A stretch of 64,000 nucleotides of DNA from an uncultured Candidatus Binatia bacterium. Its GTDB lineage: Bacteria; Desulfobacterota; Binatia; UBA9968; JAJDTQ01. Below the pieces are notes generated by a model. The model ran no database searches, had not been told where the DNA came from, and saw nothing but the letters and a program-made list of their open reading frames with translations. The stretch spans positions 2,400,001-2,464,000 of the forward strand of contig OZ243916.1 of NCBI GenBank assembly GCA_965213675.1, given 5' to 3'. Below, in pieces: positions 7,264-38,859 of the stretch; position 1 is the first letter of the stretch; the number at the start of each line of letters is the position of its first letter. A program made the translations under genes and the position numbers.

Positions 7264-10200
7264 ATGGTCATGGTGAACGAAGGACGAGATGGGAACCGGG
7301 CGTTGGGCAGGAGGCATGGGGAGATAGCGGGGCGCGCGGAAAATAGTTTGGCTCAGGACTTGACAAGGCCTGAGTCAACCCATAATCGCCGGATCGCCGG
7401 ATCGCCGGATCGCCGGATCGCCGGATCGCCGGATCGCCGGATCGCCGGATCGCCGGATCGCCGGATCGCCGGATCGCCGGATCGCCGGATCGCCGGATCG
7501 CCGGATCGCCGGATCGCCGGATCGCCGGATCGCCGGATCGCCGGATCGCCGGATCGCCGGATCGCCGGATCGCCGGATCGCCGGATCGCCGGATCGCCGG
7601 ATCGCCGGATCGCCGGATCGCCGGATCGCCGGATCGCCGGATCGCGCTTGGTGCGTCTTCATGGTGGCGCCGTCTAGGGCGCTCCGCCTCCCGGCCTGAA
7701 TCTTCCGCATCCGCCCGCGGGCGTTCCGACACCCGCCGGCCCGCTTCCTCTTCCGACAGCTTCGCTCCCTCTCCCGCCCGCGCCGCGGCGGGCGCCCGTG
7801 CCGCCGCCCGCAATCTGCGGCGTGGCCTGCTGCCGGCCCTGCTTTGCCTGCCGCTGCTGTTCGGCCTTGCCGCCCCGGCCGCCGCACAGACGACACCGAC
7901 AATCTCCCCATCGACGCTGATCGAGGAAGGGAGCCGCGGTCGTCTCGGGATCGGTGTGACTATCAGCAATATCCCGTCGAGTTGGGTTGCTCCCATTACG
8001 CACTCGCTGACGACGACCGGCACCGGCACCGGTCACGCGACGCTCGCCTCAGGCGTTTGCCGCGATGTAGACACCTTAAATACCTCGTTAGACGCCTACG
8101 ACGTATGCGACGACGAAGGCACAGGCTACAGCTCGGGCTCGAACCTCTACACTCTCGCACTTAGGGCGAGCATCGATACTCACTCGGATTCGGGCGAGAC
8201 CTTCACGGTGACGCTGACGGACTCGTCGACGCCGCGGAATACCGTTTCGTTCACAATGACGATCAACGATCCGCCGGTGAGGATCGGGGTGTCGCTGCCC
8301 GACCAGGAGGGCGTATCCCGCGTCGGCGGCAATCAGCCCCATGAGGAGAGCACGGGCAGCGTTGTGTTCGACCTGAGCGCCGACGAGCCGCTGGCGAACG
8401 ATCTGACGGTGTGCGTGCGGGTGAGCGAGAGCGGCGGCAACCGGGTGACCTCGGGCAGGGGTATCCGGACCGCGACCCTGCTGGCCAGCGGCGTCAGCAA
8501 CGGGTCGGGCAGCTACACGGTCAACTGGACCGACACCGCCGCCGACGACCCGGACAGCACCGTCATCGTCCGGGTAGTGCCGCCGGAGGAGGCGGGCTGC
8601 TCGGCGACCGACGGCAGCTACGGGGTATCCGGTGACGACCCCTTGGATACGATTCTCATCCAGGACGACGAGGACACCACGGTCTCGCTCACGAGTTCGG
8701 ACAGGACCATGACCGAGGGCGACGCCTCGGACACGGCGACCCTGACGGTCTCGCTGGATCGCCGGCTTTATGGCGGAGAGACAATCGGCGTGCCGATCGC
8801 GCTGGCGTCGACCACCGGGGCGCGGCTGCCGGGGAGCGTGGACGGCGGCAGCACCGCCAACCACGACTTCACGGTCGCGGCCGCGGCCGGGAGCGGGCAC
8901 AGCGGGGTGACGCTGGCGAACGCATCGACGGCCAACCCGCGGGTGGTCTTCACCGGCCACGACAGCAACACGGTGCAGACGGCGACGGTAACGCTGACCC
9001 CGGTGGCGAACCGCGACGACGGCGACGCGGCCCATGAGACGATCACCGCGACGCTGAGCTCGCTCGGCCTGGTTGACACGACGGTAAGCGGCGGCGTGGC
9101 GGCGCATGGGACGAACAACGCGGCGACCCTGACGCTGGCGGACGACGAGGCCGCGCCGCCGCCGGTGACATGCTCCGCCCAGAACCCCATCTTCAATGAT
9201 ACCAGCCTTCGCATCCTCGAGACCGGCGAAACGACCTATTGCGTGCGCCTGACGACCGCCCCGTCCGGCGGTGACACCACCGTCACCATCGGCAGGATTG
9301 GCGGGGGCGCGACCGTCAGTCCCGCGTCGCTCACGTTCACGTCATCGAATTACGAAACACCCCAGCAGGTAACGGTGACCGGCATGGATGAGCCCGGTTC
9401 GCATCGGAATCGCACGACGCAGTTGACCCACACGGCCAGCGGCGGCGGCTATTCGAGCCAGAACCTGGGCCGTGTCCGGGTAGAGGTGGACGACGCGCCC
9501 GAGGTCGAGGCGTATTGGTACATCAAGGGCGGCGCGGGCGGCGTGCGGATCCGGCGACCGCATACGATAACGTCAACGCCCGGGCTGACGCCGTGGCAGA
9601 ACGCGGCACCCGGCGACAGGATATCCTATGCCGTGCGCCTGTCGAACCGCCCGGAGCCGGGCGGCACGGTGACCGTGATGGCGACGGTGCCTTCGGACAA
9701 GCGGAACCTCGTCGGCCTGTCGCTGACCAAGGACCGCGCCGCGCAAGACACGGTGACGGTGGAGTTCAAGGACCGCAGTCCCGGCGCAGGCACGGGCTGC
9801 AGCAACTGGTTCGGCCATCAAGCGCATCAATACTTCGACAGCCACGGCAACACGCGGACAGTGTCGGGCCGGCAGCCGAGCGAGAGCTACGACGGCACGG
9901 CGGACACGCCCTGGGAGTGCTGGCGCATGATTTATGTGGTCCGCAAGGACGCCTCGCGGAACATCGACGACACCTGCGCCGACATCACCCACACCGCCAC
10001 AGGCGGCGGCGTGCGCAAGGTCACGGTCGATACGATCCGCGCCCATGTAAGGAACCCGTCGCGCAACAGGCGGGGGTCAAGCGGTTACAACACCCAATGC
10101 CGCAACCTGACCGGCAACACGCAAGCGGCACCCGCGACGGCCGCCCCGGCGCCCACCGAGGCGGTGGCCAACCTGCAGGTGACGGCGGTGGACGACGCCA

Positions 10201-13200
10201 GCGCCAGCGTCACCTGGGACGCGGTGGAGCATGCCACCTCCTATGACGTGTCGTGGAGTGCCGAGAGCGGCGACTCGCTGAACGCTTCCGCCGGTGACTT
10301 GCCCGGCGTGACAGGCACCACGACCACCATCGACCACGGCGCCTCGGTGCCGATGACACTGACGGTCACGGTGACGCCGGAATATGTCGACAAGAACGGC
10401 GACACGCAGCAATTGGACAGCCTCGCCGGCACGGCAACCCTGGCGGTAGGGCCGGGCAGCGACGCGCTGAGCGCCAGCGCGCAGAGCACCGACAGCCAGG
10501 CGCCGGCCTGCGTCTCCGACGCCCTGCTGGCCGACGCCCGGAAGGCTGCGGGCGAGACCTGGCGGACGTCGCCGGGCCATGTCGAGCGCTGGAGCCGGGT
10601 GCTTGCCGCCTTCGGGGAGAGCAACGCCTGGAGCAACAACCCGATGACCATCGCCGAGGCGCAGGCGCAGGCGGACCGCGGCCTGAAGCGCTGGGCGCCG
10701 GTGGCGCCGGCGCTGGAATGCCTGGAGAAGGAGCCGGCGCAGGCGAAGGCGCAAGTAGAGGCGCAACAGGCGGTTCCCGCGATCACCGTAACCGCGGGAG
10801 CGGGGGTGACGGAAGGCACGGCGGCGGGCTTCACGCTCAAGGCCGATCCGGCGCCGGCGGAAGAACTCGCGGTGACGGTGGCGGTGGCCCAGACCGGCGC
10901 CATCGCGGATGCCTCGGCGCTCGGCGAGCGCATTGTGACGATCCCGGCCGGGAAGGCGGAGGCGGCCTTCACGGTGGCGACGCTGGCCGATGAGACCGAC
11001 GAGCCGGCGGGCGCCGTCACGGCGACGGTGAGCGACGGCCCCGGCTATACGGTGGACGACCAGGGCAAGAGCGCAAGCGTGGCGGTGGCGGACGACGACG
11101 CCACCGCGGTAGTGCTGACGGCGCCGGATGGCGACCTGCCCGAGGCGTCGGGCTCCAAGACGCTGACGCTGACGCTCGGGCGGGCGCTGGTGGAGGGCGA
11201 GAGCCTGTCGGTGCCGCTGGCGCTTGCCGGCACGGCCACGCTCGGCTCCGACTACACGCTGGCCGCGCCGGAGACGGCGCCCGCGGGCGTGACCTATACC
11301 CACCTTGGCGGTACCGACCCGAAGAACCCGCCGGAGGTGACCTTCGCCGGCGCCGCGGGGCGCAAGTCGGCGACAGCGGCGACGCTGGTGCTGGCGACGG
11401 TGGCGGACAGCGTGGCCGAGGGCGAGCGGGAGACGGTGACGGTGAAGCCGGGCACGCCGGTCGCCACCGGCCTCGGCGGCGGGGCGGCGGCCTCGGGCGC
11501 GGCCGGCTTCGCCATCCTGGAGCCGCCGCCGGAGATCGCGATCGCGGCGAAGACCGGGACCGTGGCAGAGGGCGCGGATGCCGCCTTCACCCTGACCGCG
11601 AGCCGGGCCCCCGGCGCGGACCTGACGGTCAACCTCACGGTCTCGGAGCCAGACGGCAGCGACTTCGTGGCAGCCGAGCATGAAGGGACCACCACGGCGA
11701 CCATGCCGAAGGGGGAGACCGAGGCCACCTTTACGGTGCCGACGGTGAACGATGTGGCGGACGAGCCCGGCGGGACGGTGACCGCGACCCTTGCCGGGGA
11801 CGGCGACAAGGGACTGCGCTACACGGTGGCAGCGGCGCCGGACAATGCGGCCTCCGTGAAGGTGACCGACGACGATGCGGCGGCGACAGCCCCCACCTTC
11901 TCGGTGGGCGACGAGACCGCCAACGAGGATGTCGGGTTGATGTATTTCACGGTGCGGCTCGACCGGGCCGTGCAGCAGGCGGTGAAGGTGACCTTCACGG
12001 CGCGCGAGGCGAGCCCGGTCTCGGCCCGGCAGGGCGAGGACTGGTTCTGGTGGTGGCCGAACGGCATCGCGCTCACCTTCCATCCGGGCCAGACCGAGAA
12101 GCGGATGTGGGTCTACGTCTACAACGACAATCACGACGAGGACCCGGAGACCTTCGAGGTGGCGCTGTCGAACCCGACGGGGGGCACGGCCATCGGCGAC
12201 GGGGTTGCGGTGGGCACCATCGTCAACAACGACCCGATGCCCAAGGCGTGGCTGAGCCGGTTCGGCCGCACGGTGGCGCAGCAGGCGCTGGACGGCATCG
12301 CGAGCCGGATGAGGGCGCCGCGGGAGGCGGGCGTGCAGGGCACCCTGGCGGGACAGGCGCTGCCGGACGGCAGCACCGCTTCCCAGGAAACCGGGTCCGG
12401 CCCGGGATGGCAGACCGCGGCCCATGACCACGCGGCGCCCGGAGCCCGGGCCACGGGCTTTACCGGCGGCGTCCAGGACGGCGCCGAGCCAGGGACCGCT
12501 TCAACATGGAGAGCCCTGAGCTTGCGGGAACTCATGCTCCAGAGCCGCTTCACCGCCACCGGCGGCAAGGACGCCAAGGGCGGCAGCCTGGCCTTCTGGG
12601 GGCGGGCCGCGCAGGCGCACTTCGACGGCAGGGAGGGAACCTTCTCCCTTGACGGCGACACCACCACCGGCATGCTCGGGGCGGACTACGCCCGGAACCG
12701 CTGGATGGCCGGCCTCGCCCTCACCCACAGCGAGGGGGAGGGCGCCTATGCGGACACGGACACGGCCCCTGAACCCTGCGCCGAAGCCGGCGCGGACCAC
12801 ATGAGCGACGATGCCAGTAAGGTTCTGTGCGAAGGCGCCGTGCGCGAGGGCGACGGCAGCCTCGACGCCTCGCTGACCGCGGCCATACCCTACGCCTCTT
12901 TCCAGGCCACCGAGCGGCTGAAGCTCTGGGGCGCGGCAGGCTACGGCGCCGGCGCGGTGACCCTCAAGCCGGAGGTCGGCGGCGTGTTCAAGTCGGACGT
13001 TTCCTGGACCATGGCGGCGTTGGGCTTCCGTGGGAACCTGTGGCCCCCGCAGAAGCAACGCTCCGGGCCGGCGCTGGCGCTTGAGTCGGACGCGCTCTGG
13101 GCGCGCACCTCTTCGGAGAAGACCCGGGACCTCGCGGCCTCGGACTCCGATGTGACCCGGCTCAGGCTCGGTCTGGAGGGAAGCTGGAAGATCGCCCTGG

Positions 13201-13790
13201 ACCAAAACGGCCATCTGACGCCCAGGCTCGAAGTGGGCGCGCGCCATGACGGCGGCGATGCCGAGACCGGCACGGGCATCGAACTCGGCGGCGGCATTGC
13301 CTGGAGCGACCCCGCCCTGGGCCTCCGCCTCGATGTCGAGGGCCGCACCCTGCTGGCCCACGGGTCCGATGATCTGGAGGACCGGGGCTTTGCCGCCTCC
13401 CTCGCCTACAACCCCGACCCGGCAACCACTCTCGGCCCCTCCCTGACTCTTCGTCAGGACTGGGGCGGACAGGCCAAAGGCGGCATCGACGCCCTGTTCG
13501 CCCCCGACCCCCTGGACACCCGCGGCGGCGCGGGCGGTACCGCCGAGAGCCGCTGGCTGGCCGAAGCCGCCTACGGCTTCCCGGTCCTCGACCGCCGCTT
13601 CGCCGCCAGCCCCCATCTAGGCTTCGGCTTCGCCGCCGGCACCCGCGACTACAGCCTGGGCTGGCGCTTCAACCCCCTGGCACGCAACAACGCCCCCGAT
13701 CTCCAACTCGGCCTAAACGCCACCCGAAGGGACGCCGCCCACTCAAAACCCGAACACATCCTCCGCTTCAAGGTCGCCCTCAACTGGTGA
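7264..13790 (+). CDS. Giant autotransporter-like surface protein (Calx-beta/FN3-like repeats, C-terminal beta-barrel), frameshifted at an 8-bp tandem repeat in its leader
   Basis: GGAGG-7 nt-ATG at 7264, leader homologous to the paralogue starting at 22727; signal peptide LLPALLCLPLLFGLAAPAAA|Q at ~7825-7890 is in the frame of the 7956-13790 ORF; Calx-beta-like DDD/DETDE/ETF motifs; MPKAWLSRFGRT linker; barrel ends FKVALNW. Confidence 0.8.
7385..7645 (+). repeat. Perfect tandem repeat (ATCGCCGG)x32 plus partial ATCGC
   Basis: 256 bp from 7385 to 7640 counted directly; no spacers. Confidence 0.98.
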
Positions 13791-13908
13791 CCTCCAAAAT
13801 GGCTTGGCACCCGCAACGCGTCCCGTCGGACTTGGCTGCGAGCACCCCGTGTTCGTGCGGCTACGGCCATTGAGGCGCTGTCGGTCAGGTCGATCACCTC
13901 CACGTCCA
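13701..13908 (+). repeat. Imperfect direct repeat, copy 1 (autotransporter 3' end plus downstream DNA); copy 2 at 23570-23758
   Basis: Shared ctccaactcggcct..cactcaaaacccgaacacatcctccgcttcaaggtcgccctcaactggtgacctc..tcggtcaggtcgatcacctccacgtcca. Confidence 0.9.
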
Positions 13909-14057
13909 TAGCGGGCGGCGCCCACGGGACGAACCGCCACGCCCATGCCGGCTGCGCGATGGCCTCCGCCCGCTCACGCGGACGCTCCCAGTAGTGGTTC
14001 AGGTCCGCCAGACGACGGGACGGTTCACTCGGTTCATTCCAGTATCGGATACGGGTC

Positions 14058-14492
14058 TCATCGCGGCTCGGCCGTCCATGGATCGATGGTCTCAACGCCG
14101 GTATTGCGGAACTCACCCGTGTTTCGCGTCACGATAGAGAGAGCCCGACATGCTGCGGCTCCAGCGAGAAAGGCGTCCGGAACATGATCGTCGAGCGGCT
14201 CACCGCGTCGGCGCTTTTCTTCCATGATCCGGGCACACGCCTCGGCATCGGCCATGGACCAGTCGAGGATGCGGTCCTCGAACAACTCGTCGAGAAGATC
14301 GTGGAACCGATCGGCGAGACTGTCCCGACGCCGGCCGGGAGCGAGACGTCCGATGCCGTTGAGGATCTCCCAAACGGTGATGGACGCGAGGCCGATGCCC
14401 TCGGCGGCGATGGAATCGAGAAAGGCGGCAACGCGGGGTTCAGGTCGCGGCCGCATCATTTCGGAGACGACGTTCGTGTCAATTAGATACAT
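14058..14492 (-). CDS. vapC: PIN-domain toxin (VapC/FitB-like)
   Basis: MYLIDTNVVSE, SITVWEI..G, DAFLAG and TRNTGEF..G..DPW; start moved from the ORF-track position to ATG 14492. Confidence 0.9.
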   Translation of the reverse strand: MYLIDTNVVSEMMRPRPEPRVAAFLDSIAAEGIGLASITVWEILNGIGRLAPGRRRDSLADRFHDLLDELFEDRILDWSMADAEACARIMEEKRRRGEPLDDHVPDAFLAGAAACRALSIVTRNTGEFRNTGVETIDPWTAEPR

Positions 14493-14739
14493 CAAATTCT
14501 GAAGGCGATTCTGCCCTGTTTTACCCGTCGTCGCATGCCGCTCCTGATGCGATGTTGTCCTATAAGAGGTTGTATTGACGCGGTTATTCCTCATCTCTAC
14601 ACTGTCCTCCGCCTTGCCAACCCAGCGATGAGGCCGTCACAGCCTACGTCCACTGTTGCCGTCACCATGCTACCTCTGTGCTTACGGTTCTGCTACCGGA
14701 ATTCATCGCGCAGACGCCGCCTCGAAGGACCGCCGCACC

Positions 14740-14895
14740 ATGGCCGAACGCCAGTTCCGCACCCTCACCAAGCGCACCGTGGACCGTCTCTCGGTCAACG
14801 GCAAGGACGCCGTCTTCTGGGACAACGACCTTCCGGGCTTCGGCGTTCGAGTCTACCCCTCGGGCAGGAAGGTCTTCGTCGTCCAGACGCGCGCC
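14740..14895 (+). pseudogene. Tyrosine integrase N-terminal arm-DNA-binding domain fragment
   Basis: MAERQFRTLTKRTVDRL..VFWDNDLPGFGVRVYPSGRKVFVVQTR, then an abrupt switch to unrelated sequence. Confidence 0.8.
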
Positions 14896-15250
14896 TTCGG
14901 CGACCAAGCTTTCGCGGATCGTGGCGTTGATTTCGTCGCGCAGCGCCCGCGTCGGGGCAATTACCCCGGTCGCTTCGCGCTGCAGCTCGTGCGGCAGGTT
15001 CAGCCACTGGCGCGCGGTCTCGGCCCCGATATCGCCATACTCCACTTGCCGGATGTTGTCGCCGAGCCTGGCGAACGCGCCCTTCACGTCGCCGGTGAGG
15101 CCGCCCGGATCGCCGCCTTCAACACGGCATCGCGCTGGCGGAGAATGTCGTCCATCATCGCCGTCTGCATCCCAGCGGCCCTGAGTTGCGCGAACGGCTT
15201 CGCGGCTGCGTTCCGCTTCGCGTCACCCGCCGCTGCACCATGCTGCGCAT
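14890..15250 (-). pseudogene. TrwC/TraI-like (MOBF) relaxase-helicase fragment, frameshifted
   Basis: GDAKR..AKPFAQLRAAGMQTAMMDDILRQRD and TGVIAPTRALRDEINATIRE. Confidence 0.7.
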
Positions 15251-15439
15251 GAGTGCATCGGCGACTGCGCCGATCCCGGCGCACTTGCCCCGGACCGCGA
15301 TCCGGGACGGCCGCTCGCATCCCTCGCGGCACTCGTGCAGGCGCTCTTGCGGAGCCCGCCCGCACTTCGCCCGGCACTGTCTCGCGCAACCGCGCCGCAC
15401 TGCCAGCCGCTCAAGCGCCGCGGCGGCTCCATCGCGCCC

Positions 15440-15720
15440 ATGTCGCGGCTTCAGGGATTCTTCCTTCTTCTCCGGATCGTTCGCCAGGATCACGCGGCGA
15501 CAGCACGAAAGGACTCCGTAGTAGACCAACAAGGGCTTCACGCTCATCTCCGAGCCGGCCGCGTTCCTGAAGTACTCTCGGCCATGCGCGAAGCATGCGT
15601 TGATCTGCCCTACCTTCGCGGAACTTGCGCTCCTCCCATGGACATTCCGATACCACTTCGCAACGAAATCGTGCGACTCGAAGCGCGAGATCGCCTTCCA
15701 ATGGATGCCTTCGACCATCC
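15440..15720 (-). pseudogene. YaaC-like protein N-terminal fragment
   Basis: HGREYFRNAA..SVKPLLVYYGVLS..HG motif; truncated. Confidence 0.55.
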
Positions 15721-15900
15721 TCCCCAATCCCGTCGCACTCTCATCCACTCGCTCTGGAATGGTGGCTCGTTGTCGCCATCCTGCCTGCTTGCTGCCCACG
15801 GCGAAGCCAGTTTCTCGTGTTCCTCAGGGCGTCGGGAACCTGCGTCGCCACCGGCATCGCGCAACCGAGCTCCACGCCTGTTGCACACACTCCCGATCCC

Positions 15901-16590
15901 TTAGTTCCGGATTCCGCTCCGTCGGCTGACCCGATGGAGCCGATGCTCGAAATACCGCCGGAACGCCTCGTTCTCGGGCCACGCCCCCGGATCGGCCCAG
16001 ATCGCCCCCAGCCGTCCCACCAGCCCGGCGATCCAGTCCGCCGCCTGGATGGTCTGGTAGCGGTGGCTCTCCAGATGGAAGGGGGGTTCGATGAGATGGC
16101 GCCGCCGCTGGCTCCGCCCATACATGCTCTTGGCGGCTTCGGTCAGAAGCGCCGCACGCTGCTCATGCTCGTCGAGAATCAGGACGAACGCTTCCGGCGG
16201 ATCGCAATCTTCGCCGCAATGGCCGTCGATCCGCTTGATCGCCTCCAGGAACACCCTCGCATAGAGCCGGTTCGGGTTATGCCCACCCGGCGCCGCGGTC
16301 TTCCTCACACGGACATAGAACACGAAGCCGCCAAGCCGCTCGATCTTGTTGAACAGCCGGTTGGTGAACCTTCGGAGCTCGGGATACCGGGTCACGTTGG
16401 TCAGCGTGTAGAGGCTTGCTCCCTTCTTCTCCCACAGCGCGGGGTGCTCTCCCCGCCGTTCGATCTCGAAGGCGAGCAGCTCGCACTTGCGCTGGAAGAA
16501 CCAGGTCCCGAAGCCGCGCACCGCTTCCGCCGGAAGCACGAAGCCCGCCAGCCCGAACACCGGGCTCTCCCTGTATCTGGGGTGCTGGCG
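15901..16590 (-). pseudogene. DUF3800-like protein, N-terminally truncated
   Basis: SPVFGLAGFV..EKKG..ILDE..IEPPFHLESH..IQAADWIAG; the N-terminal DE motif is replaced by relaxase sequence. Confidence 0.65.
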
Positions 16591-16760
16591 GCCGACGTAG
16601 AACGACTTCTGCGTGGTGAGATGGGGGTGGTTGGCTTCCATGGCGGCGATCACGGTATCGACCGTGCGGCCCTGGAAGGCATGCACGGTCGACGCCCAGG
16701 CCCGGTCGAGGTGGCGGAACTGCGGGTCGTCGTCAAGCGCGTCGAGGCGCTCACCGCCGA
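16590..16760 (-). pseudogene. TrwC-like helicase C-terminal fragment
   Basis: HLDRAWASTVHAFQGRTVD..TQKSFYV (SF1 helicase motif V/VI region). Confidence 0.7.
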
Positions 16761-16869
16761 AGGCCGGCTCCGCCTCGCCTCCGCACATCCCGACTACCCG
16801 CCCTACGAGTGCCGGGCCGACGAGGTCCACATCGTCGGCAAGGTGCTGTGGAAGGTCACCCGCGCCTGA
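16725..16869 (+). pseudogene. S24/LexA-like peptidase C-terminal fragment (phage-repressor type)
   Basis: VVKRV..LRLASAHPDYPPY..IVGKVLW. Confidence 0.6.
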
Positions 16870-16934
16870 CGCGTGGCGCGGCCCATGCCCCCCGCCGGCG
16901 CGGCGGGAGGCAATGGCAATGACGCCGCCGCGCC

Positions 16935-19900
16935 TCACCACCGCGCGTTGACTTCGAACCCGACGCTGTGCTCCGGCATGGCCGTGTCGCTCTCCCTGCG
17001 GGTCGCCTTCAGCCCGAAGGAGACATCGGGCGCGTTGGCGTTCGCCGCCGTGGTAAGGCGCCAGCCGAGGCTGTAGTCCCGCGCATCGGTGGCGAGGCCC
17101 AGCCCCATATGCGGGCTGCCGGTGAAGCGCCCCGAGAAGGCCGGGAAGCCCCAGGCCGCTTCCGCCGTCCAGCGGGAGGCGGCCTCCCCTCCGCCCATCC
17201 GGTCCGCCAGCGGGTCGGACGCGAACAGCGCGTCGAGCCCGCCCTTGGCCTGTCCGCCCCAGTCCTGGGTCAGCGTCAGCGAGGGACCGCGCGCGGTCGC
17301 CGGGTCGGGATCGAAGGCCAGCGAGGCCGCGAAGCCCCGATCCTCCAGATCGTCCGAGCCGTGCGCGACCAGCGTGCGGCCCGACAGGTCGAGCGACAGG
17401 CCGAGCGCCGGATCGACCCAGGCGAGCCCGCCGCCGAGTTCCACCCCGAAGCCGGTCTCGGCATCGCCCCCGTCGTGGCGCGCGCCTATTTCCAGCTTGG
17501 GTGTGAGACTGCCCCCGCCCTCGGTGGCGATGCGCCAGCTCCCCTCCAGGCCGAGCCGGAGACGGGTCACGTCGGACTCCGACGCCGCAAGCTCGTGCGT
17601 CTTCTCCGAGCTCGTCCGCGCCCACAAGGCATCCGAGGTCAGCGCCAGCGCAAGGCCGCTCCCTTCCCTCGACAGGGAAACAAGGTCGTTGCGAACCCCC
17701 GCCGCCGCCATCGTCCAGGCGATGTCGGAGCTGAGCGAGCCGCCCACCTCCGGCTTCAGCGTGACCTCGCCGGTGCCATGGCCCGCCGCGCCCCAGAGCT
17801 TCAGATGCTCGGACGCCTGGATCGCGGCATAGGGAACCGCCGCCGTCAGCGACGCATCCACCTTGCCGTCGCCTTCGCGGACGGCGCCGGCGCACAGATG
17901 CGCCATCGTGGCGGGGTCCATGCCCTCGCCAACATCCGGACAGTGCTGCGGCCCCGATTCCCTGTCGGCATAGCCGCCTTCCCCGCTGCTCCGCATCAGC
18001 GCCATGCCGACCAGCCAGTTGCCGCGCGCATAGTCCGCGCCCAGCATCGCCGAGGTCGCCTCGCCGTCGAGCGAGAACGTCCCCTCCCGTCCGTCGAAGC
18101 TCGACTGCGCCGCCCGGCCCCAGAAGGCCAGGCTGCCGCCCATGCCGTCCTTCTCCCCGGTCGCCGTGAAGCTGCTGCCCAGCAGAGCCTCGAGCCCGGT
18201 CATGGTGTACGAGCCCGCGCCGCCTGCCCCGGACACCGATCCGGTGGCGAAGCCATGAGCGTCATGGCCGATCGCGCCGCCGCCCCAACCGTCGGCGGAA
18301 GCGCCGAAGGCGCGGGCCACGTGGGAGCGTGCCGGCACGTCCTTGCCGGCAAGGCTGCCTGGTGCGGCATTGTCGTTCGCCGCCCCGGACCCGTCAGGGC
18401 TGCCGAAGCCGAGCGCCTGTCCGGCGATCGTGCCCTGCACCCCGGCGCCGCGCGAGGCCGCGATGCGCCCGGCTATGCCGTCCAGCGCCTGCTCCGCCGC
18501 CGTGCGACCGAAGCGCGCCAGCCACGCCGCCGGCATCGGGTCCGAGTTGGTGATGGTGCCCACCGCGACCCCGTCCGCAATCGATACCGACACCCCGGGC
18601 GGACCGTTCACGGCCGCGTCGAACAGCACCATCTCGAAGGTCTCCGGACCCTCGTCATGGCTGTCGTTGTAGAGGCGGACGTGGATCAGCGTTTCCGTCT
18701 GCCCCGGCCTGAACCGGGCCCGCAGCCGCCAGGACCGCTTCCACGCCAGGTAGTCCTGGCCCGCCACGGCCGACACCGGCGTCGAATCCCGCGTCGCGTA
18801 GTAGACATGGACCGGCCAGTCCACCGGCTCGCTCAACGTCACCTTGAAATTCCCCGTTATTCCGTTCTCCTTGAGCGTGGCATCGGCAATCGAGATCGTC
18901 GGACCCGAGGACGCCGCATCGTTGTCGGACACCGCCACCGTGGCCGCATTGTCCGGGGCGGCGGCCAGTGTGTAGCCGGCGCCAATGCCCAGGGTGGCGG
19001 TGATCGAGCCGTCCGGCTCGTCCGCGCCGTCGTCCACCGTGGCGACCTCCACGTCCACGCTGCCTGTGACCGGGACGGTGACCGTCCTCGACCCGGTCTC
19101 GCCCGAGGCGGCGAAATCGCCGCTCTGGCCGACGGTCAGCGTTACGTCGAGCGGTGCGACCGGCACCGGGCTCGCCGAGACCGTGAAGGAGGCCGACGTG
19201 CCTTCCGTCACCCCGCTGCCGGCGGCGATGCTCACCACCGGCTCGTCATTGTCGCGCACCGCCACCGCGGCGCTGCCCTTGCCCGTGGCCACGGTGTAGC
19301 CCGTGCCCGTGCCGAGGGTGACGCTCACCGACCCATCGGCCTCGTCCGCTGTGTCGTCCACCGTGGCCACCGAGAGTGCGACGCTGGTAGCCCCTGCTGC
19401 CAGTGTCACCGTCCGGCTGCCCGCGCCGGGGGCGTCCAGATACTCGCCGCTCTGGGCGACGGTCCAGGCAATCGTCAGGTCGGAATGCGGCGCCGGATCG
19501 GCCGTGACCGTGAAGGTGGCATTGCCGCCCTCGTCCACGGCGGAGCCCGCCGAAAGGCTGAGTTCGGGCGTGGCGGGTGTTACCGGCTGGACCTCAGCCT
19601 GTTCCGGCTGTTCCTCCTGCGGCGGGTTCGCCAGGCATTCCAGCGCCGGCGGCACGGGCGCCCAGCGCTTGAGGCCGCGATCCGCCTGCGCCCGCGCCTC
19701 GGCGACAGTCATCGGGTTGTTGCTGTAGGCGTTGCTCACCCCGAAGGCGGCAAGCACCCGGCTCCAGCGCTCGACATGGCCCGGCGAAGTCCGCCAGGTC
19801 TCGCTCGCAGCCGCCTGGGCGTCGGCAAGCAGGGCGTCGGAGACGCAGGCCGGAGCCTGGCTGTCGGCGCCTTGCGCGCTGGCGCTCAGCGCGTCGCCGC

Positions 19901-22727
19901 CCGGCCCCACGGCAAGCGTCGCCGTGGCGGCCAGCGCGTCGAGTTGCTGCACCGCGCCATTGCCGTCGATGTATTCCGGCGTCACCGTGACCGTCAGCGT
20001 CATCGCTTCTTGCGCATCATGCCGGATGGTGGCCGTAGTGCCGGTCACGCTCTCGACGCCGGAAACGGCGGTCTCGGAGCCGTTGGCATCCCATGACACG
20101 TCATAGGAGGTGGCATGTGCCACCGCGTCCCAGGTGGCGCTGGCGCTGGCGTCGTCCACCGCCGTCACCTGCAGGTTGGAGACCGCCGTGTCGGGCGCCT
20201 GGACCGCCGGCGCGTTGTTGCCCACGGGGCATAGCCCGTTATTGATCCGCACGCATTTGCTGCCCGGAGCCAGCCGGAACGGACGGCCGGTGGCCGTCAC
20301 CTTGAAGGTCACCGTGCCCGCCCCGGCGTCGTGCCGGATACTGATGGGCACCGTGAACTCGGAAAAGCCCCTATTAAGTGACTTGTAGCCCGACTTGCCC
20401 AGACCCTGCCTGCGGTTGTCATCGACCACCCCGCCGGTGTCCTCGACCTCCCACTTGACGTAGAGGCCGGTCGGCAGGGCGCCATTGACCGAAGTGATCG
20501 TGAATATCGCGCGGTACCGGCGGTCGCGCTTCGACGTGTCGTCATACCCCGACACCTTCAGAACGGGCAGGTCGTCCTTGATGGTGATGACCGTGCTGAT
20601 GGTCTCGTTGGCAATGCGGGTCGAGTCCGGAATCTCCAGCAGGGCCGTGGTCTCCTTGCCCGACACGGTGCTCCGCTGCAGCCGGATTTTCACCGACTCG
20701 TCCGGCTCGTCGCTGCTGCCGTCGTCGAACAGCGTCAGATCGAGGTAGGTGCCGAGTTGCCCCTTCGGCAGCGTCGCGGGGTGGCAGCCCGTCGTCGTGA
20801 CCTTCGTGCCGTCCTGGCCGACCAGCGTGTAGTCGTCGCCAAGCGTCGCCGAACCGCTCACACAGTACTCGAAATGCGCATCGACCTGCAGCGGCCGGTT
20901 GGGTATCGAGGAATGCGCAGGGGCCAGAGCGATCTTGATCCTGCGCCCGCTATCGACCCCGTCCCTCAGCACCGTCCCGCTCTCGTCGACCTTGAGCAGG
21001 GGCGTCGCTTCGTCGTCCTGGATGTATATCGTGATCCGGTTCGGCGAGCCCACCGCGTGGGTGCCCGTGCCCACCATCTCCAGGACCACCGTCTCGGTTC
21101 CCTCGATCAGTGTGTCCTCGATGACCGTGATCGGCAGCGACGCAAGCGTCTTCCCCTTCGCCAGCGTCATCGTGCCCCGGTTGTTGTTCCGGTTGTAGCC
21201 GCCGCGCAGGCGGTAGTCGGTGCCGTAGGTCGCCGTGCTCCCCCCGTCCTCATTCCCGGGTACCACCTGGTAGGTTACCGTGTTATCCCAGCCAGCCTGC
21301 GCCGAGAACGGGATGCCGACATCCTGATCGAGGGACGGTCTGCCTTCTCTCACGCCCGGTTTGCCGGCCCAGGTGCCGAAGGCAAGCGGCTGCTGGTGAT
21401 AATCGTCGTCATCGATCACCAGGGTCTGGCTTCTGAACACGCTGTCGATCCCGTAGGGTGAAGGGAGCGGCTTTACCGGGTTCGGATTCAGGGTGATTCT
21501 GACCGTTTCCTGCCCCGATATAACCAGCCGCTCCTGGCCGTCGATCCACATCGGCACCTGCTCGTGGTGGTTGTCGCCAAGCACCTGGATGCGGAACCTC
21601 TTCAGTTGCTGGTTGGCGGCGATGGACGAGTCGACGCAGCCACTGTTTCTGGTCTGCCAGGCGCTCCCCACCCGTTCCTGTATCAGATAATCGTCTTGCT
21701 CGGCATTGCCGCCGGTGCGTCGCCTGGCACTGCCGGAGAAGCACAGGCGGAAAGGCAGGGGAGACGAAGAGAGCTGTTCGGTCTTGACCTGGAACTCCAC
21801 ATTCTTCGGCGCTGAATCCGTCTCCTTCACGCATGTGTACGTTTTACTGCTGCCTCCACCAACAGAGCAGGTATCCTTGCCCCGGTCCAGCGAGAGCGAG
21901 AGAAACTGGTTTGCGGCCTTGATCGTGAATGTGGCGGAGAGGTCTGGAGGGAATGTGGCGTCGTTAATCTGCCCAAACCGAAGCAAGCCACTCCGAGTGC
22001 CTCCGGCGACAGTCACCGTCACCGGATCATCTGCCCTGATTAGCGAGCCGTGGTAAGCGAGGGTGATCTGCGCGGAGCGATGACTAAGGCTTCTGCCATG
22101 GGGGTGACCCGGCCGCTCTCGCCGGAGCAGCTTGCCGCTTGCGATCGTCAATCCCCGAGGGGCGCCCGACAATGTGATCAGGGCAAGACCTGCTGCGCTC
22201 AACCTGGCTTCGCCGTCCCTGAAGGGGATGGCTCCCTGGTCGTCCGGGTGAATATACTTCTGTCTGAAGGAGTCGGAGAGTTCAGTGGTACCGCCGCGGC
22301 CAGCTCCAAAAAACGTGGCGTTTTTCGGAATCAGTGTGATCGTTGCCCCGTGCAGAAAATGTGCCTGTATCTCGGTGGGAATGGTCTCCAGGTACGGCGC
22401 AGTCTGTGCCTGTGCACCAGTGGCGAGACTGAGCAGCACAGCGGCGAGACTGAACCGCAAATGGTGGATGGCAAAGAAATCCGCCAAAGCGCGGGCGGGA
22501 GACAGGCTGGAGCCGCCGGTGGCAGAAGGCTCAGGCCGGGAGGCTGGGTGCCCCGGGCGGCCAGCCATGCGAGCGCGCTCATGCCGGCGATCCGGCGATA
22601 TACCAAGGGGAGTCCCCTCAACCCTTGTCAACCCCTGCGCGAAACAATTTTTCGCGCGCCCGGCGGTGGCCGCAAGCGCTGCGCCCAGCGCGCGGATCGC
22701 ATGTTGTCCTTCCTTGAATATGGTCAT
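16935..22727 (-). CDS. Giant autotransporter-like surface protein with Calx-beta/FN3-like repeats (paralogue 2, intact)
   Basis: GGAGAG-ATG at 22727; extended leader then SLAAVLLSLATGAQA|Q; Calx-beta motifs (EDTLIEGTET, DDTADEADG); MPAAWLARFGRT; barrel ends FEVNARW. Confidence 0.88.
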   Translation of the reverse strand: MTIFKEGQHAIRALGAALAATAGRAKNCFAQGLTRVEGTPLGISPDRRHERARMAGRPGHPASRPEPSATGGSSLSPARALADFFAIHHLRFSLAAVLLSLATGAQAQTAPYLETIPTEIQAHFLHGATITLIPKNATFFGAGRGGTTELSDSFRQKYIHPDDQGAIPFRDGEARLSAAGLALITLSGAPRGLTIASGKLLRRERPGHPHGRSLSHRSAQITLAYHGSLIRADDPVTVTVAGGTRSGLLRFGQINDATFPPDLSATFTIKAANQFLSLSLDRGKDTCSVGGGSSKTYTCVKETDSAPKNVEFQVKTEQLSSSPLPFRLCFSGSARRRTGGNAEQDDYLIQERVGSAWQTRNSGCVDSSIAANQQLKRFRIQVLGDNHHEQVPMWIDGQERLVISGQETVRITLNPNPVKPLPSPYGIDSVFRSQTLVIDDDDYHQQPLAFGTWAGKPGVREGRPSLDQDVGIPFSAQAGWDNTVTYQVVPGNEDGGSTATYGTDYRLRGGYNRNNNRGTMTLAKGKTLASLPITVIEDTLIEGTETVVLEMVGTGTHAVGSPNRITIYIQDDEATPLLKVDESGTVLRDGVDSGRRIKIALAPAHSSIPNRPLQVDAHFEYCVSGSATLGDDYTLVGQDGTKVTTTGCHPATLPKGQLGTYLDLTLFDDGSSDEPDESVKIRLQRSTVSGKETTALLEIPDSTRIANETISTVITIKDDLPVLKVSGYDDTSKRDRRYRAIFTITSVNGALPTGLYVKWEVEDTGGVVDDNRRQGLGKSGYKSLNRGFSEFTVPISIRHDAGAGTVTFKVTATGRPFRLAPGSKCVRINNGLCPVGNNAPAVQAPDTAVSNLQVTAVDDASASATWDAVAHATSYDVSWDANGSETAVSGVESVTGTTATIRHDAQEAMTLTVTVTPEYIDGNGAVQQLDALAATATLAVGPGGDALSASAQGADSQAPACVSDALLADAQAAASETWRTSPGHVERWSRVLAAFGVSNAYSNNPMTVAEARAQADRGLKRWAPVPPALECLANPPQEEQPEQAEVQPVTPATPELSLSAGSAVDEGGNATFTVTADPAPHSDLTIAWTVAQSGEYLDAPGAGSRTVTLAAGATSVALSVATVDDTADEADGSVSVTLGTGTGYTVATGKGSAAVAVRDNDEPVVSIAAGSGVTEGTSASFTVSASPVPVAPLDVTLTVGQSGDFAASGETGSRTVTVPVTGSVDVEVATVDDGADEPDGSITATLGIGAGYTLAAAPDNAATVAVSDNDAASSGPTISIADATLKENGITGNFKVTLSEPVDWPVHVYYATRDSTPVSAVAGQDYLAWKRSWRLRARFRPGQTETLIHVRLYNDSHDEGPETFEMVLFDAAVNGPPGVSVSIADGVAVGTITNSDPMPAAWLARFGRTAAEQALDGIAGRIAASRGAGVQGTIAGQALGFGSPDGSGAANDNAAPGSLAGKDVPARSHVARAFGASADGWGGGAIGHDAHGFATGSVSGAGGAGSYTMTGLEALLGSSFTATGEKDGMGGSLAFWGRAAQSSFDGREGTFSLDGEATSAMLGADYARGNWLVGMALMRSSGEGGYADRESGPQHCPDVGEGMDPATMAHLCAGAVREGDGKVDASLTAAVPYAAIQASEHLKLWGAAGHGTGEVTLKPEVGGSLSSDIAWTMAAAGVRNDLVSLSREGSGLALALTSDALWARTSSEKTHELAASESDVTRLRLGLEGSWRIATEGGGSLTPKLEIGARHDGGDAETGFGVELGGGLAWVDPALGLSLDLSGRTLVAHGSDDLEDRGFAASLAFDPDPATARGPSLTLTQDWGGQAKGGLDALFASDPLADRMGGGEAASRWTAEAAWGFPAFSGRFTGSPHMGLGLATDARDYSLGWRLTTAANANAPDVSFGLKATRRESDTAMPEHSVGFEVNARW

Positions 22728-23020
22728 CGCGATCTCTCCGAACCTGTCGCCCGGCTTGCCGGTGCGCACAGTGCACAAACCTGCCGAGCGTCACTATTTT
22801 TCCATTCGTACCGTATCCGAACACGGAGCGAAGGCAAGTCAGCCGCGCGTTTGTAAAGTCAGCGCGCACTTGCATCCACACACAACGACGGCGACGCCCT
22901 TGCCGGTATCGGCCGCCACAGAGCCGCCGACCGCAGCACCGATATCGTGCATGACGATGCAGGCCGCAGCGCCGTCACCATCGACCGAAATCCCCGCTGA
23001 CGCGGTAGCCGTCCAGCGTG

Positions 23021-23053
23021 CGTGTCAATCAGCCATGCAAGTGGCGCGGTCAA
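23021..23053 (-). pseudogene. Orphan 5' stub of vapC (MTAPLAWLIDT), coupled to the fitA-like antitoxin
   Basis: TTG start overlaps the antitoxin stop (TTGA); encodes PIN-like WLIDT, then loses similarity exactly at the direct repeat. Confidence 0.6.
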
Positions 23054-23307
23054 TCCCTGTCCTCTTCGGAGAACGACAGCGGCCGGTATCCGTAACGCGC
23101 CGGTGGCGGCAGTTCGATCCCGTACTCCTCACCGAAATACCGCGCGAACGCTTCGGACGGCTTCGGACGGCTTTCGGACTTCGTGCGTTTTTCGTGAATC
23201 AACCGGCGTACGAACTCTTCCATAGACATGCCGACTTCGCGGGCCTCGCGCTTCAGCCAGGACTTGTCCCGGGAATCGATGTCTCGGACGGTGATGCTGG
23301 AGTTCAT
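23050..23307 (-). CDS. FitA-like ribbon-helix-helix antitoxin
   Basis: SITVRDID..KSWLKREA..GMSMEEFVRRLI..GIELPPPAR; AGGAG RBS. Confidence 0.8.
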   Translation of the reverse strand: MNSSITVRDIDSRDKSWLKREAREVGMSMEEFVRRLIHEKRTKSESRPKPSEAFARYFGEEYGIELPPPARYGYRPLSFSEEDRD

Positions 23308-23332
23308 GTCAACGTCTCCTGTTCAGCCTATA

Positions 23333-23354
23333 CGCCATCAAATTATGCTATCAA
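23333..23354. promoter_or_regulatory. Probable FitA-type operator/promoter
   Basis: CGCCATCA-aatta-TGCTATCA; TGCTATCA is the half-site known from the Neisseria fitAB operator; the minus strand gives TTGATA-16-TATAGG. Confidence 0.5.
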
Positions 23355-23569
23355 GGAATTTGGGTCAAGAGGTTGTAGCCTCCCGCGCGTTGGAGCCGGA
23401 GAAGGCGCTTCTTCAACTGCAAGCGCAGGGCACTTCGAGGCCCAATCGGATCTCGGTCACCATCCTGATGCCCCACCCTGGCGAGTCTCGGATCAGTGTG
23501 CACGTAAACCAGAATTTGGTTACAAGGGTCATCGGGGGCGGGCGCCCCGGGTTTCGGTAACAGGTCAAA

Positions 23570-23758
23570 CTCCAACTCGGCCTCAAGGCCACCCGAAGGG
23601 AGGCCGCCCACTCAAAACCCGAACACATCCTCCGCTTCAAGGTCGCCCTCAACTGGTGACCTCGAAAAAGGCTTGGCCAGACGCCGACCCGTCGGACTTG
23701 CCTGCGGCGGCTACGGCCATTGAGGTGCCGTCGGTCAGGTCGATCACCTCCACGTCCA
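23570..23758 (+). repeat. Direct repeat copy 2: relic 3' end of a third autotransporter gene plus downstream DNA
   Basis: Encodes LQLGLKATRREAAHSKPEHILRFKVALNW*; near-identical to 13701-13908 with indels. Confidence 0.88.
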
Positions 23759-38565: not shown

Positions 38566-38859
38566 TTGAGGATCATTGCCAAACGTGCTCTGAGGGAGTT
38601 CTGGCAGCGTTATCCGGACGCTGAGAGTTGGCTTCGCGCATGGTACGACCAAGTCAGGCGAGCGGACTGGGATTCACCCGCCAGCATACGACGGGAACAC
38701 CCTCGCGCGAGCATCGTCGGGAGTGACCGAGTCGTCTTCAGGTTCAAAGGGAACGAATATCGAATGATCGTCAGGGTATTTTACCCGGGGCGTCTCATCT
38801 ACATACGGTTTATCGGCACCCACACCGAATATGACCGTGTCAATGTGGAGGAGGTGTAA
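38566..38859 (+). CDS. higB: HigB toxin (RelE superfamily)
   Basis: RIIAKRALREFW..A.W..P..VVF.FKGNEYR..YIRFIGTH.EYD. Confidence 0.88.
   Translation: MRIIAKRALREFWQRYPDAESWLRAWYDQVRRADWDSPASIRREHPRASIVGSDRVVFRFKGNEYRMIVRVFYPGRLIYIRFIGTHTEYDRVNVEEV

Follow-up and report, generated by a model that had tools for sequence, protein, structure and literature searches.

A fitA–vapC operon split, very probably, by a tyrosine-integrase element that entered the first codons of its toxin gene

FitA–VapC is a textbook toxin–antitoxin (TA) pair, and in type II modules of the FitAB/VapBC kind a ribbon-helix-helix (RHH) antitoxin gene is followed by a translationally coupled PIN toxin gene, an order also seen in the intact alleles described below. 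In a stretch of 64,000 nucleotides from an uncultured Candidatus Binatia bacterium (contig OZ243916.1, positions 2,400,001 to 2,464,000; this whole stretch is called the window), however, the two genes of such a pair lie 8.5 kb apart and the toxin gene carries a foreign start. How did they come to be separated, and what is the DNA between them? An earlier note, made from the letters of the window alone, had proposed that an integrative element of the tyrosine-integrase type entered the toxin gene and supplied it with a new start. Integrative elements are usually described at tRNA genes or at single conserved housekeeping genes; no tRNA gene was found in the window or beside nine integrase loci. 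Our analysis makes it very probable that the operon was split by a large tyrosine-integrase element, which entered the first codons of vapC and has since decayed. Related genomes are numbered G, the loci read from them L, and the public sequencing runs X.

The two halves of the operon and its intact counterparts

The split operon and its two junctions consist of the following features, given in window coordinates.

23307–23050, minus strand: intact fitA-like RHH antitoxin gene, 85 amino acids (Pfam FitA-like_RHH)
23021..23053, minus strand: 5′ stub of vapC, the native start left with the antitoxin; it opens with a TTG that overlaps the fitA stop and translates as MTAPLAWLIDT
23021..23029, minus strand: far-junction (attL) copy of the core ATTGACACG, containing TTGACAC, the 7-bp core that also flanks the 112 kb element of G024
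14475..14483, minus strand: near-junction (attR) copy of the core ATTGACACG, from repeat comparison
14058..14492, minus strand: vapC (PIN toxin), 144 amino acids, frame intact, with an element-supplied start (Pfam PIN, E 6e-12)

The antitoxin lies above the curated cut-off of its family (PF22513, 29.4 bits against 27). The coupled stub that the earlier note had seen breaking off at a 9-mer is present, and its 11 codons are identical to those that open intact vapC at L009, L010 and L011; past ATTGACACG its frame continues into unrelated sequence, a nonsense reading that stays open to 22859. Likewise, the antitoxin-less vapC that was said to begin at the same 9-mer about 8.5 kb off proved to be a complete PIN gene (14492–14058; PF01850, E 6.2e-12, 46.6 bits against a cut-off of 23.6), which the NCBIfam VapC models match below their own cut-offs. 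It opens ATG TAT CTA ATT GAC ACG, with ATTGACACG directly after ATG TAT CTA, and the 8.5 kb between fitA and vapC leave it with no coupled cognate antitoxin directly upstream. Three further vapC paralogs in the same genome are only 33–39% identical to it.

The two junctions are similar over 14 of 16 nt, within which the perfect repeat measures 9 bp. Only two copies of the 16-mer CTRATTGACACGMACG exist in the window, one at each junction, and 100 shuffles gave none. The bare 9-mer has three copies against 0.39 expected; the third (38836–38844, minus strand) lies in the frame HIDTVIFGVG, outside any PIN gene, and probably arose by chance.

An uninterrupted fitA–vapC operon was found in related genomes. 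The two genes are contiguous in 3 of the 60 relatives searched (G020, G025 and G026; 87–93% identity), where the match to fitA and the match to vapC overlap by 16 nt, reading MTAPLAWLIDTNVVSEMMRPRP. These relatives read ATG ACC GCG CCA ... CTG ATT GAC ACG AAC GTC, which is the window stub followed by the window vapC with a single copy of the repeat. Their fitA and vapC are translationally coupled through an ATGA stop/start overlap, their VapC has 149 amino acids and starts MTAPLAWLIDTNVVSE, and residues 3–144 of the window VapC align without gaps to its residues 8–149. About 10 of the 85 FitA residues differ between the window and the intact operons (manual count). As the flanks of the three operons are unlike those of the window, they are intact copies of the cassette and not the same chromosomal site. 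In addition, a 1671-nt contig from run X5 follows the window from 14017 to 14474 and then goes straight on to 23021–23386, with 4 and 7 differing letters in the two parts (98–99% identity). The seamless operon that the earlier note had obtained on paper, by joining the window at the repeat, exists as real DNA in the three relatives and in this metagenome contig, and the break in the window falls exactly at the LIDT codons. The intact alleles also show FitA and VapC to be cognate. Ribonuclease activity of the window VapC and its neutralization by this FitA are predicted from the 93% nucleotide identity of its gene to vapC of the intact operons.

The split could also be an artefact, a chimeric join made at short repeats in a metagenome-assembled genome. 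This would suit the estimated contamination of 8%, the many variant contigs that runs X1, X2 and X4 hold over the stretch, and the finding that none of the contigs listed bridges the junctions by at least 31 letters. A 9-nt repeat, however, is too short to mislead an assembler that gives a multi-megabase contig; contigs of X1, X2 and X4 cover 22993–23599, including 28 nt on the element side, with no differences; and the same architecture is found in the independent genomes G024 and G061. An artefact is thus most unlikely. The contigs of X1, X2 and X4 do not settle the near junction: in X2 and X4 the match ends at 14484 and the sequence beyond is unlike the window, and these contigs may come from a relative with an intact operon.

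The insert as two ends of a larger element

The DNA between the two halves, with the 247-nt stretch next to vapC at one end and the antitoxin stub at the other, contains the following.

14484..14739, plus strand: integrase-side element end (attP arm), which gives ATG TAT CTA to vapC; from homology to other element ends
14740..14901, plus strand: remnant of intA, first 54 codons only, without the catalytic domain; 51 of 54 residues identical to the N-terminus of a 390-aa integrase
14902..16934, no strand assigned: interior gene fragments ("junk"), from Pfam and multi-copy matches
14885–15200, no strand assigned: piece that is multi-copy in the genus, with matches at 70–75%
15155–15799, minus strand: YaaC-like piece (Pfam)
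15901–16800, minus strand: DUF3800 and UvrD_C_2 piece (Pfam)
16935..22778, minus strand: AT2, giant adhesin-like gene, 1947 amino acids, Calx-beta (Pfam), cargo at the far end
22975..23022, minus strand: remnant of an excisionase-family (HTH_17) gene, from about codon 22 and then frameshifted; from homology to G061

The integrase remnant, placed earlier at about 260 bp inside the left junction, starts at 14740, which is 247 nt inside the vapC-side junction, and comprises only 54 codons. It has no Pfam match itself; its full-length match, at L140 in G061, is a 390-aa protein with Phage_integrase and Arm-DNA-bind_3 domains (51/54, or 94%, identical), and full-length relatives carry PF00589 and PF13356. 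The homology extends outwards from the gene: the window from 14469/14473 to 14901 is 85–89% identical to L140, L143, L144 and L145, beginning at the core each time, and past the core these four loci differ from one another (PIN, PIN_3, FitB-like PIN and non-PIN sequence). Within the genus, the integrase-side end of the window aligns in conserved blocks with 11 other ends. The remnant and the 247-nt end homologous to four element ends bear out the claim that a tyrosine-integrase element was the agent.

A C-terminal fragment of another integrase (LADLNHYWERPRERA) lies at 13950–14040 (minus strand), just past the vapC stop, so that integrase debris is present on both sides of vapC; a 54-nt core of this fragment matches inside integrase genes of several relatives. 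At L012 (G024:C1:4455762-4459079), foreign DNA of low GC content interrupts a fitA homolog (86% identical to that of the window) close to the 3′ end of the gene; this DNA starts with sequence resembling the integrase fragment at window positions ~14000–14030.

The far end has its own counterpart in G061. Positions 22991–23022 are 100% identical to DNA inside a 72-aa gene there (Pfam HTH_17, E 7e-12), which scores 24.8 bits against the NCBIfam excisionase model, below the cut-off of 28.8. Positions 22781–23022 match G061 (91% and 100%) in the same orientation at ~70 kb from its integrase-side junction, and the AT2 start with its upstream region (22584–23001) is 90.8% identical to DNA beside the excisionase gene of G061. 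Among the 60 relatives, the only part of the far end that was matched is the AT2 start region. Both ends of the insert are homologous to the ends of a living element, and the insert is therefore more than an integrase remnant: it has kept both ends of a large element and a cargo gene. Judged by these alignments, the best reading of the insert is a G061-like element that has lost its middle and kept its two ends, with AT2 as cargo adjoining the excisionase gene in the window as in G061. Three interior open reading frames (ORFs) gave no match in NCBIfam.

A transposon that duplicated a 9-bp target site (ATTGACACG) would leave the integrase remnant as a bystander, and the perfect repeat does measure 9 bp, a length typical of the duplications of several transposase families. 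Several findings speak against it, and it is hardly credible: (i) no inverted repeat is seen at the ends as read or among the 25 longest inverted pairs, (ii) no transposase family was detected in the nine ORFs covered by a limited Pfam scan, (iii) the similarity of the junctions reaches 14 of 16 nt, (iv) the ends homologous to the integrase-side end lie 232–261 nt from an integrase start in every case, and (v) the repeats in G024 and G061 are 7–8 bp long and have other letters.

The far junction of the window is atypical. In G061, as read in L203, the stub DNA ends ...TTCGACAC and continues as GCACGTCG..., and the excisionase gene, ~0.6 kb further in, includes ...CCCCGCACGCTGG. In the window the letters are ...TTGACAC GCACGCTGG. 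Loss of ~595 nt between two CGCACG words may have turned a canonical junction of the G061 type into that of the window, and the CGCACG microhomology in G061 makes such a deletion plausible without proving it. Alternatively, the integrase itself could have made this junction, if after integration at the vapC core attL recombined with a secondary site in the excisionase gene. In its favour, no more than 0–2 nt separate the breakpoint from the 7-bp core, integrases of the clade do insert at look-alike sites, and secondary sites are also used by SXT (PMC5812530). Against this, CGCACG is all that the site in the excisionase gene has in common with the canonical far arm, and a TTGACAC-like core is absent there; we regard the integrase-made junction as unlikely, preferring the deletion. 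A reciprocal swap of 5′ ends, fusing the vapC start to the excisionase gene, was discarded: the excisionase gene of G061 has its own N-terminus, and in three other genomes the DNA upstream of it is conserved across the supposed breakpoint.

Living elements and the targets of their integrases

The architecture of the window recurs in two full elements and at many single junctions. In G003, an RHH antitoxin gene and a vapC gene (MIVLDTNVV...) form an intact operon, which provides the empty-site reference for G024. There, an antitoxin 97% identical to that of G003 is followed by the stub MIVLDT at C1:4775978, and the rest of vapC, 96% identical to that of G003, lies at ~C1:4888245, headed by the element-supplied GTG ATT ACT AGT and adjoined at this near junction by intact intA and intB genes. 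The element between them measures ~112 kb and has the core TTGACAC in common at its two ends. In G061, a MazE/AbrB-type antitoxin gene (Pfam, 2e-12) at ~3025395 has a TGA overlapping the ATG of an 18-aa stub, MTAFFDT..., and the integrase end with a PIN gene is found at ~2954334, giving an element of ~71 kb. The cores of these intact elements are TTGACAC/TCGACAC, in repeats of 7–8 bp whose letters differ between G024 and G061.

A small element of ~6 kb had been considered and was rejected, since the region past intB is homologous among many copies for at least 4 kb further and the two elements measure 112 and ~71 kb. Searches for the far junctions by pattern had little success: a 15-mer core pattern found no match nearby in G003, a 16-mer consensus pattern gave nothing usable in G061, where the junction was located by reading L203, and words of the near junction searched for repeats in 20 kb downstream pieces yielded nothing useful.

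The backbone of the 70–112 kb elements was sampled over 20 kb at L104, which encodes HU-like, DUF2201, ParB_N and RadC proteins and a Strawberry-notch (Sbno)-type helicase. The sample of the G024 element holds cargo genes only. In the window, the relaxase and type IV secretion genes of an integrative and conjugative element were looked for, and only the UvrD_C_2 fragment (Pfam) came up, with no NCBIfam match. At L102 (G024:C1:4865700-4885699), the cargo of the 112 kb G024 element includes a 5-hmdU DNA kinase gene (HMUDK_hel, E 1.5e-96) that adjoins the gene of a MazG_C protein (E 1.2e-77) at ~13346–15509; these are genes of thymidine hypermodification pathways, better known from phages. In two copies of the element, reverse-transcriptase-like ORFs interrupt the backbone near the HU-like gene (L099, 3950–5820; L101, ~300–2700); they are apparently group II introns, as judged from motifs read by eye such as YADDFVV.

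In the genus of the window, whose taxonomic labels disagree among themselves, intA (389 aa) has 14 matches at 80% identity or more, and up to 26 integrase matches occur in one genome. A second integrase gene (~55% identity) follows intA in all 12 loci with enough sequence past it. The junction lies 232–255 nt from the intA start at 11 of the 12 readable loci; at L077 the end is deleted. All 12 junctions have a core like TTGGACACCAACGT, and eight abut a PIN (PF01850) or PIN_3 (PF13470) gene, with Pfam matches that start at profile positions 3–5. The other four junctions fall at the 5′ end of an SDR gene, within an Amidohydro_2 gene, upstream of an FAA-hydrolase gene and at a frame of 19 aa; look-alike cores are found at the non-PIN sites in the SDR gene 5′ end, the Amidohydro_2 gene and the intergenic site. 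At L075, read by eye, the integrase-side end is joined to far-end-like sequence, as in an attP-like or tandem junction.

A wider set was taken from the GTDB species genomes, in which 37 loci have an integrase of at least 65% identity and 34 of these have enough flank. At 20 of the 34, an ORF with an (L/I/F)DTNV motif lies 232–261 nt upstream of the integrase start on the opposite strand. Six of the 20 are the same as genus loci already tested, one (L134) has only a 21-aa frame, and the remaining 13 were sent to Pfam, where every one matched PIN or PIN_3 (13/13). A further VapC flank that the motif pattern had missed was recognized by eye (L135). At 21 of the 34 loci, the integrase-side end thus abuts the (L/I/F)DTNV codons of varied PIN genes. 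As a control, integrases of 42–60% identity were examined over a wider search range, and 3 of their 39 loci have a motif ORF, none of them PIN-like by eye. In a plasmid collection the best integrase matches reach at most 46% identity, and two annotated plasmid neighbourhoods (integrases of 45–46% identity) contain no PIN gene. The host labels of the clade, all of metagenome genomes, include Binatia, Thermodesulfobacteriota, Alpha- and Gammaproteobacteria and others. Targeting of the 5′ codons of PIN genes is, on these alignments, a property of the whole integrase clade. The case of the window is a fossil, and it led to a living element family with an unusual, family-wide target.

Integrases ~58–60% identical to intA have other flanks. 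At L079 and L097 in G007 they adjoin the N-terminal PGFGVRV region of a different integrase gene, and at L092 in G016 and L093 in G018 the opening codons of a gene that starts MDYIIGVDIGGT (both read by eye); these integrases may represent sister clades with coding-motif targets of their own.

The claim that the element supplies a new start was confirmed by the ATG of the window and extends beyond it. When the ends are aligned by eye, an in-frame ATG or GTG stands 3–4 codons before the conserved Asp at seven of the eight readable PIN-flank ends (the window, L068, L069, L070, L072, L074 and L064; the exception is L089), and at L076 the element gives an SDR gene its ATG. The junction core itself includes TTGACA. 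Such a start might place the toxin under element control.

The PIN gene might instead be cargo at the edge of the element, not its target, with the fitA stub an unrelated truncation. TA genes are common island cargo, and in G013 an intact fitA–vapC stands directly beside a truncated intA. Against this, (i) the element homology ends exactly at the core, beyond which the flanks are unrelated (PIN, PIN_3, SDR, amidohydrolase, intergenic), (ii) stub and vapC together equal the intact gene of the relatives letter for letter across the join, and (iii) the same holds for a second operon, in G024 versus G003. We consider cargo status highly improbable and the PIN gene the target. The G013 locus (L078/L014/L024, G013:C1:2933035-2937114) carries a fitA–vapC 72–75% identical to that of the window and an intA without its first ~25 codons.

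Course of events, known systems and neighbouring features

Considering this evidence, we propose the following course of events. The ancestor would have carried an ordinary fitA–vapC operon of RHH antitoxin and PIN toxin. An integrative element of ~70 kb, probably conjugative and equipped with two tandem P4-type tyrosine integrases (intA and intB), would have recombined through its attP with the first codons of vapC, with the crossover inside the 7-bp core TTGACAC, whose letters code for the first acidic motif of the PIN domain, (L/I)-D-T. This would have left the antitoxin with its promoter and the 11-codon stub at the far end of the element and the rest of vapC at the integrase end, where element DNA provided an in-frame ATG and the three codons M-Y-L. 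Decay to 8.5 kb would have removed the interior and cut intA to 54 codons, and with the ~0.6 kb deletion between two CGCACG hexamers the far arm would have been lost together with the 5′ portion of the excisionase gene. An element decayed in this way could no longer excise, and the split would be fixed. We infer from the arrangements described above that an integrase catalysed the event, and the choice between the two integrases, the order of the deletions and the effect on toxin expression are to be read in the same way.

Several observations weigh against this course of events. The genome is a metagenome-type assembly with the 8% contamination given above, no listed contig bridges either junction of the window by 31 letters on both sides, and the public-run data, which consist of contigs only, show neither an excision product nor an attP circle nor a junction at read level. 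The non-canonical far junction needs the extra deletion of ~595 nt, ending 0–2 nt from the core. The G061 example is without an empty-site reference, and the model gives no account of G013, where an intact fitA–vapC homolog lies beside a 5′-truncated intA with the antitoxin in between. As 13 of the 34 clade loci are without a PIN flank, the specificity is loose. Finally, neither a promoter-like site (minus strand) nor a clear Shine–Dalgarno sequence is found ahead of the new ATG in the window, and the re-headed toxin may therefore be silent.

Both the window and G024, compared with G003, show insertion in the first codons, an in-frame start from the element, short direct repeats and an empty site. 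We class these elements with those that insert at the 5′ end of a gene such as dusA or prfC and rebuild it. SXT, for instance, supplies a new prfC 5′ end and promoter. Conjugative elements of the SXT/R391 type use the 5′ extremity of prfC and, at lower frequency, secondary sites, and form tandem arrays (PMC5812530). The elements described here resemble them in their large size, in the use of a gene 5′ extremity and of secondary sites, and in the attP-like L075 set beside the tandem arrays there; they differ in integrase lineage and in target. Islands and prophages with dusA-specific integrases replace the dusA 5′ end (Farrugia et al. 2015, PMC4482086). Both they and the present elements are cases of a tyrosine-integrase element that enters the 5′ end of a protein-coding gene and replaces it with element sequence, with imperfect direct repeats and the integrase gene beside the junction. 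Unlike dusA, which is one conserved single-copy housekeeping gene, the target here is a short motif of a diverse, multi-copy toxin family together with its look-alikes, the event separates two genes of an operon, and the integrases are two in tandem. The comparison with dusA concerns the architecture of insertion. That a whole integrase clade specializes on one class of protein-coding target borne by other genetic elements has a parallel in the clade reported to target prophage late genes repeatedly (PMC10111431); target class, hosts and consequences differ.

The earlier note had suspected that no integrase with this target had been described, and a full-text search of the literature agrees: it returned no PIN or vapC gene described as an attachment site, although the TIGER/Islander tables of 2020 might list one. 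That a family of large tandem-integrase elements evolved to use the DNA of the first catalytic motif of PIN genes as a family-wide, multi-copy attachment site is a tentative proposal, which we hold to be possible and still rather doubtful. If true, one type of element could occupy dozens of sites in a genome and pass between distant bacteria, and each integration would rewire a TA module, leaving the antitoxin and a re-headed toxin at opposite ends, with the toxin read from element signals. Together the two would then bracket and stabilize the element, or tie toxin expression to the state of the element. The attachment site here is a short coding motif common to a whole toxin-gene family, and such a multi-copy target may explain both the many copies per genome (up to the 26 integrase matches) and the presence of the family in genomes labelled as very different bacteria. 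It also offers a concrete, testable route to orphan PIN toxins and orphan antitoxins, and a new interplay of TA modules and mobile DNA. For annotation, an antitoxin-less vapC beside an integrase may be half of a split operon, whose far partner marks the other end of the island; and an integrase with a short, motif-like attB could interest genome engineers.

The whole split locus is bracketed by a further repeat.

13701..13908 and 23570–23758, plus strand: direct repeat R, ~200 nt, from repeat search

The two copies of R are 95–96% identical with one internal indel, and hold the last 30 codons of AT1 (7956–13790, plus strand), a spacer and an antisense, degenerate integrase piece (DVEVIDLTD, resembling DVRIHDLRH). 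R was considered as the att pair of a larger island and rejected, because the operon is not restored when the window is joined at R. Part of a third copy is found at G000:C1:793286-793404.

AT1 is a paralog of the cargo gene AT2, and the two form an inverted homology of 74–86%. The upstream regions of several giant adhesin-like genes of this genome are mutually homologous (window 7580–7892 and 22584–23001; G000:C1:800134-800431 and 3049918-3050201), and their homology to the region beside the excisionase gene of G061 suggests that these genes spread as element cargo. Upstream of AT1, positions 7321–7680 hold a tandem array of an 8-nt unit in at least 33 register-shifted copies.

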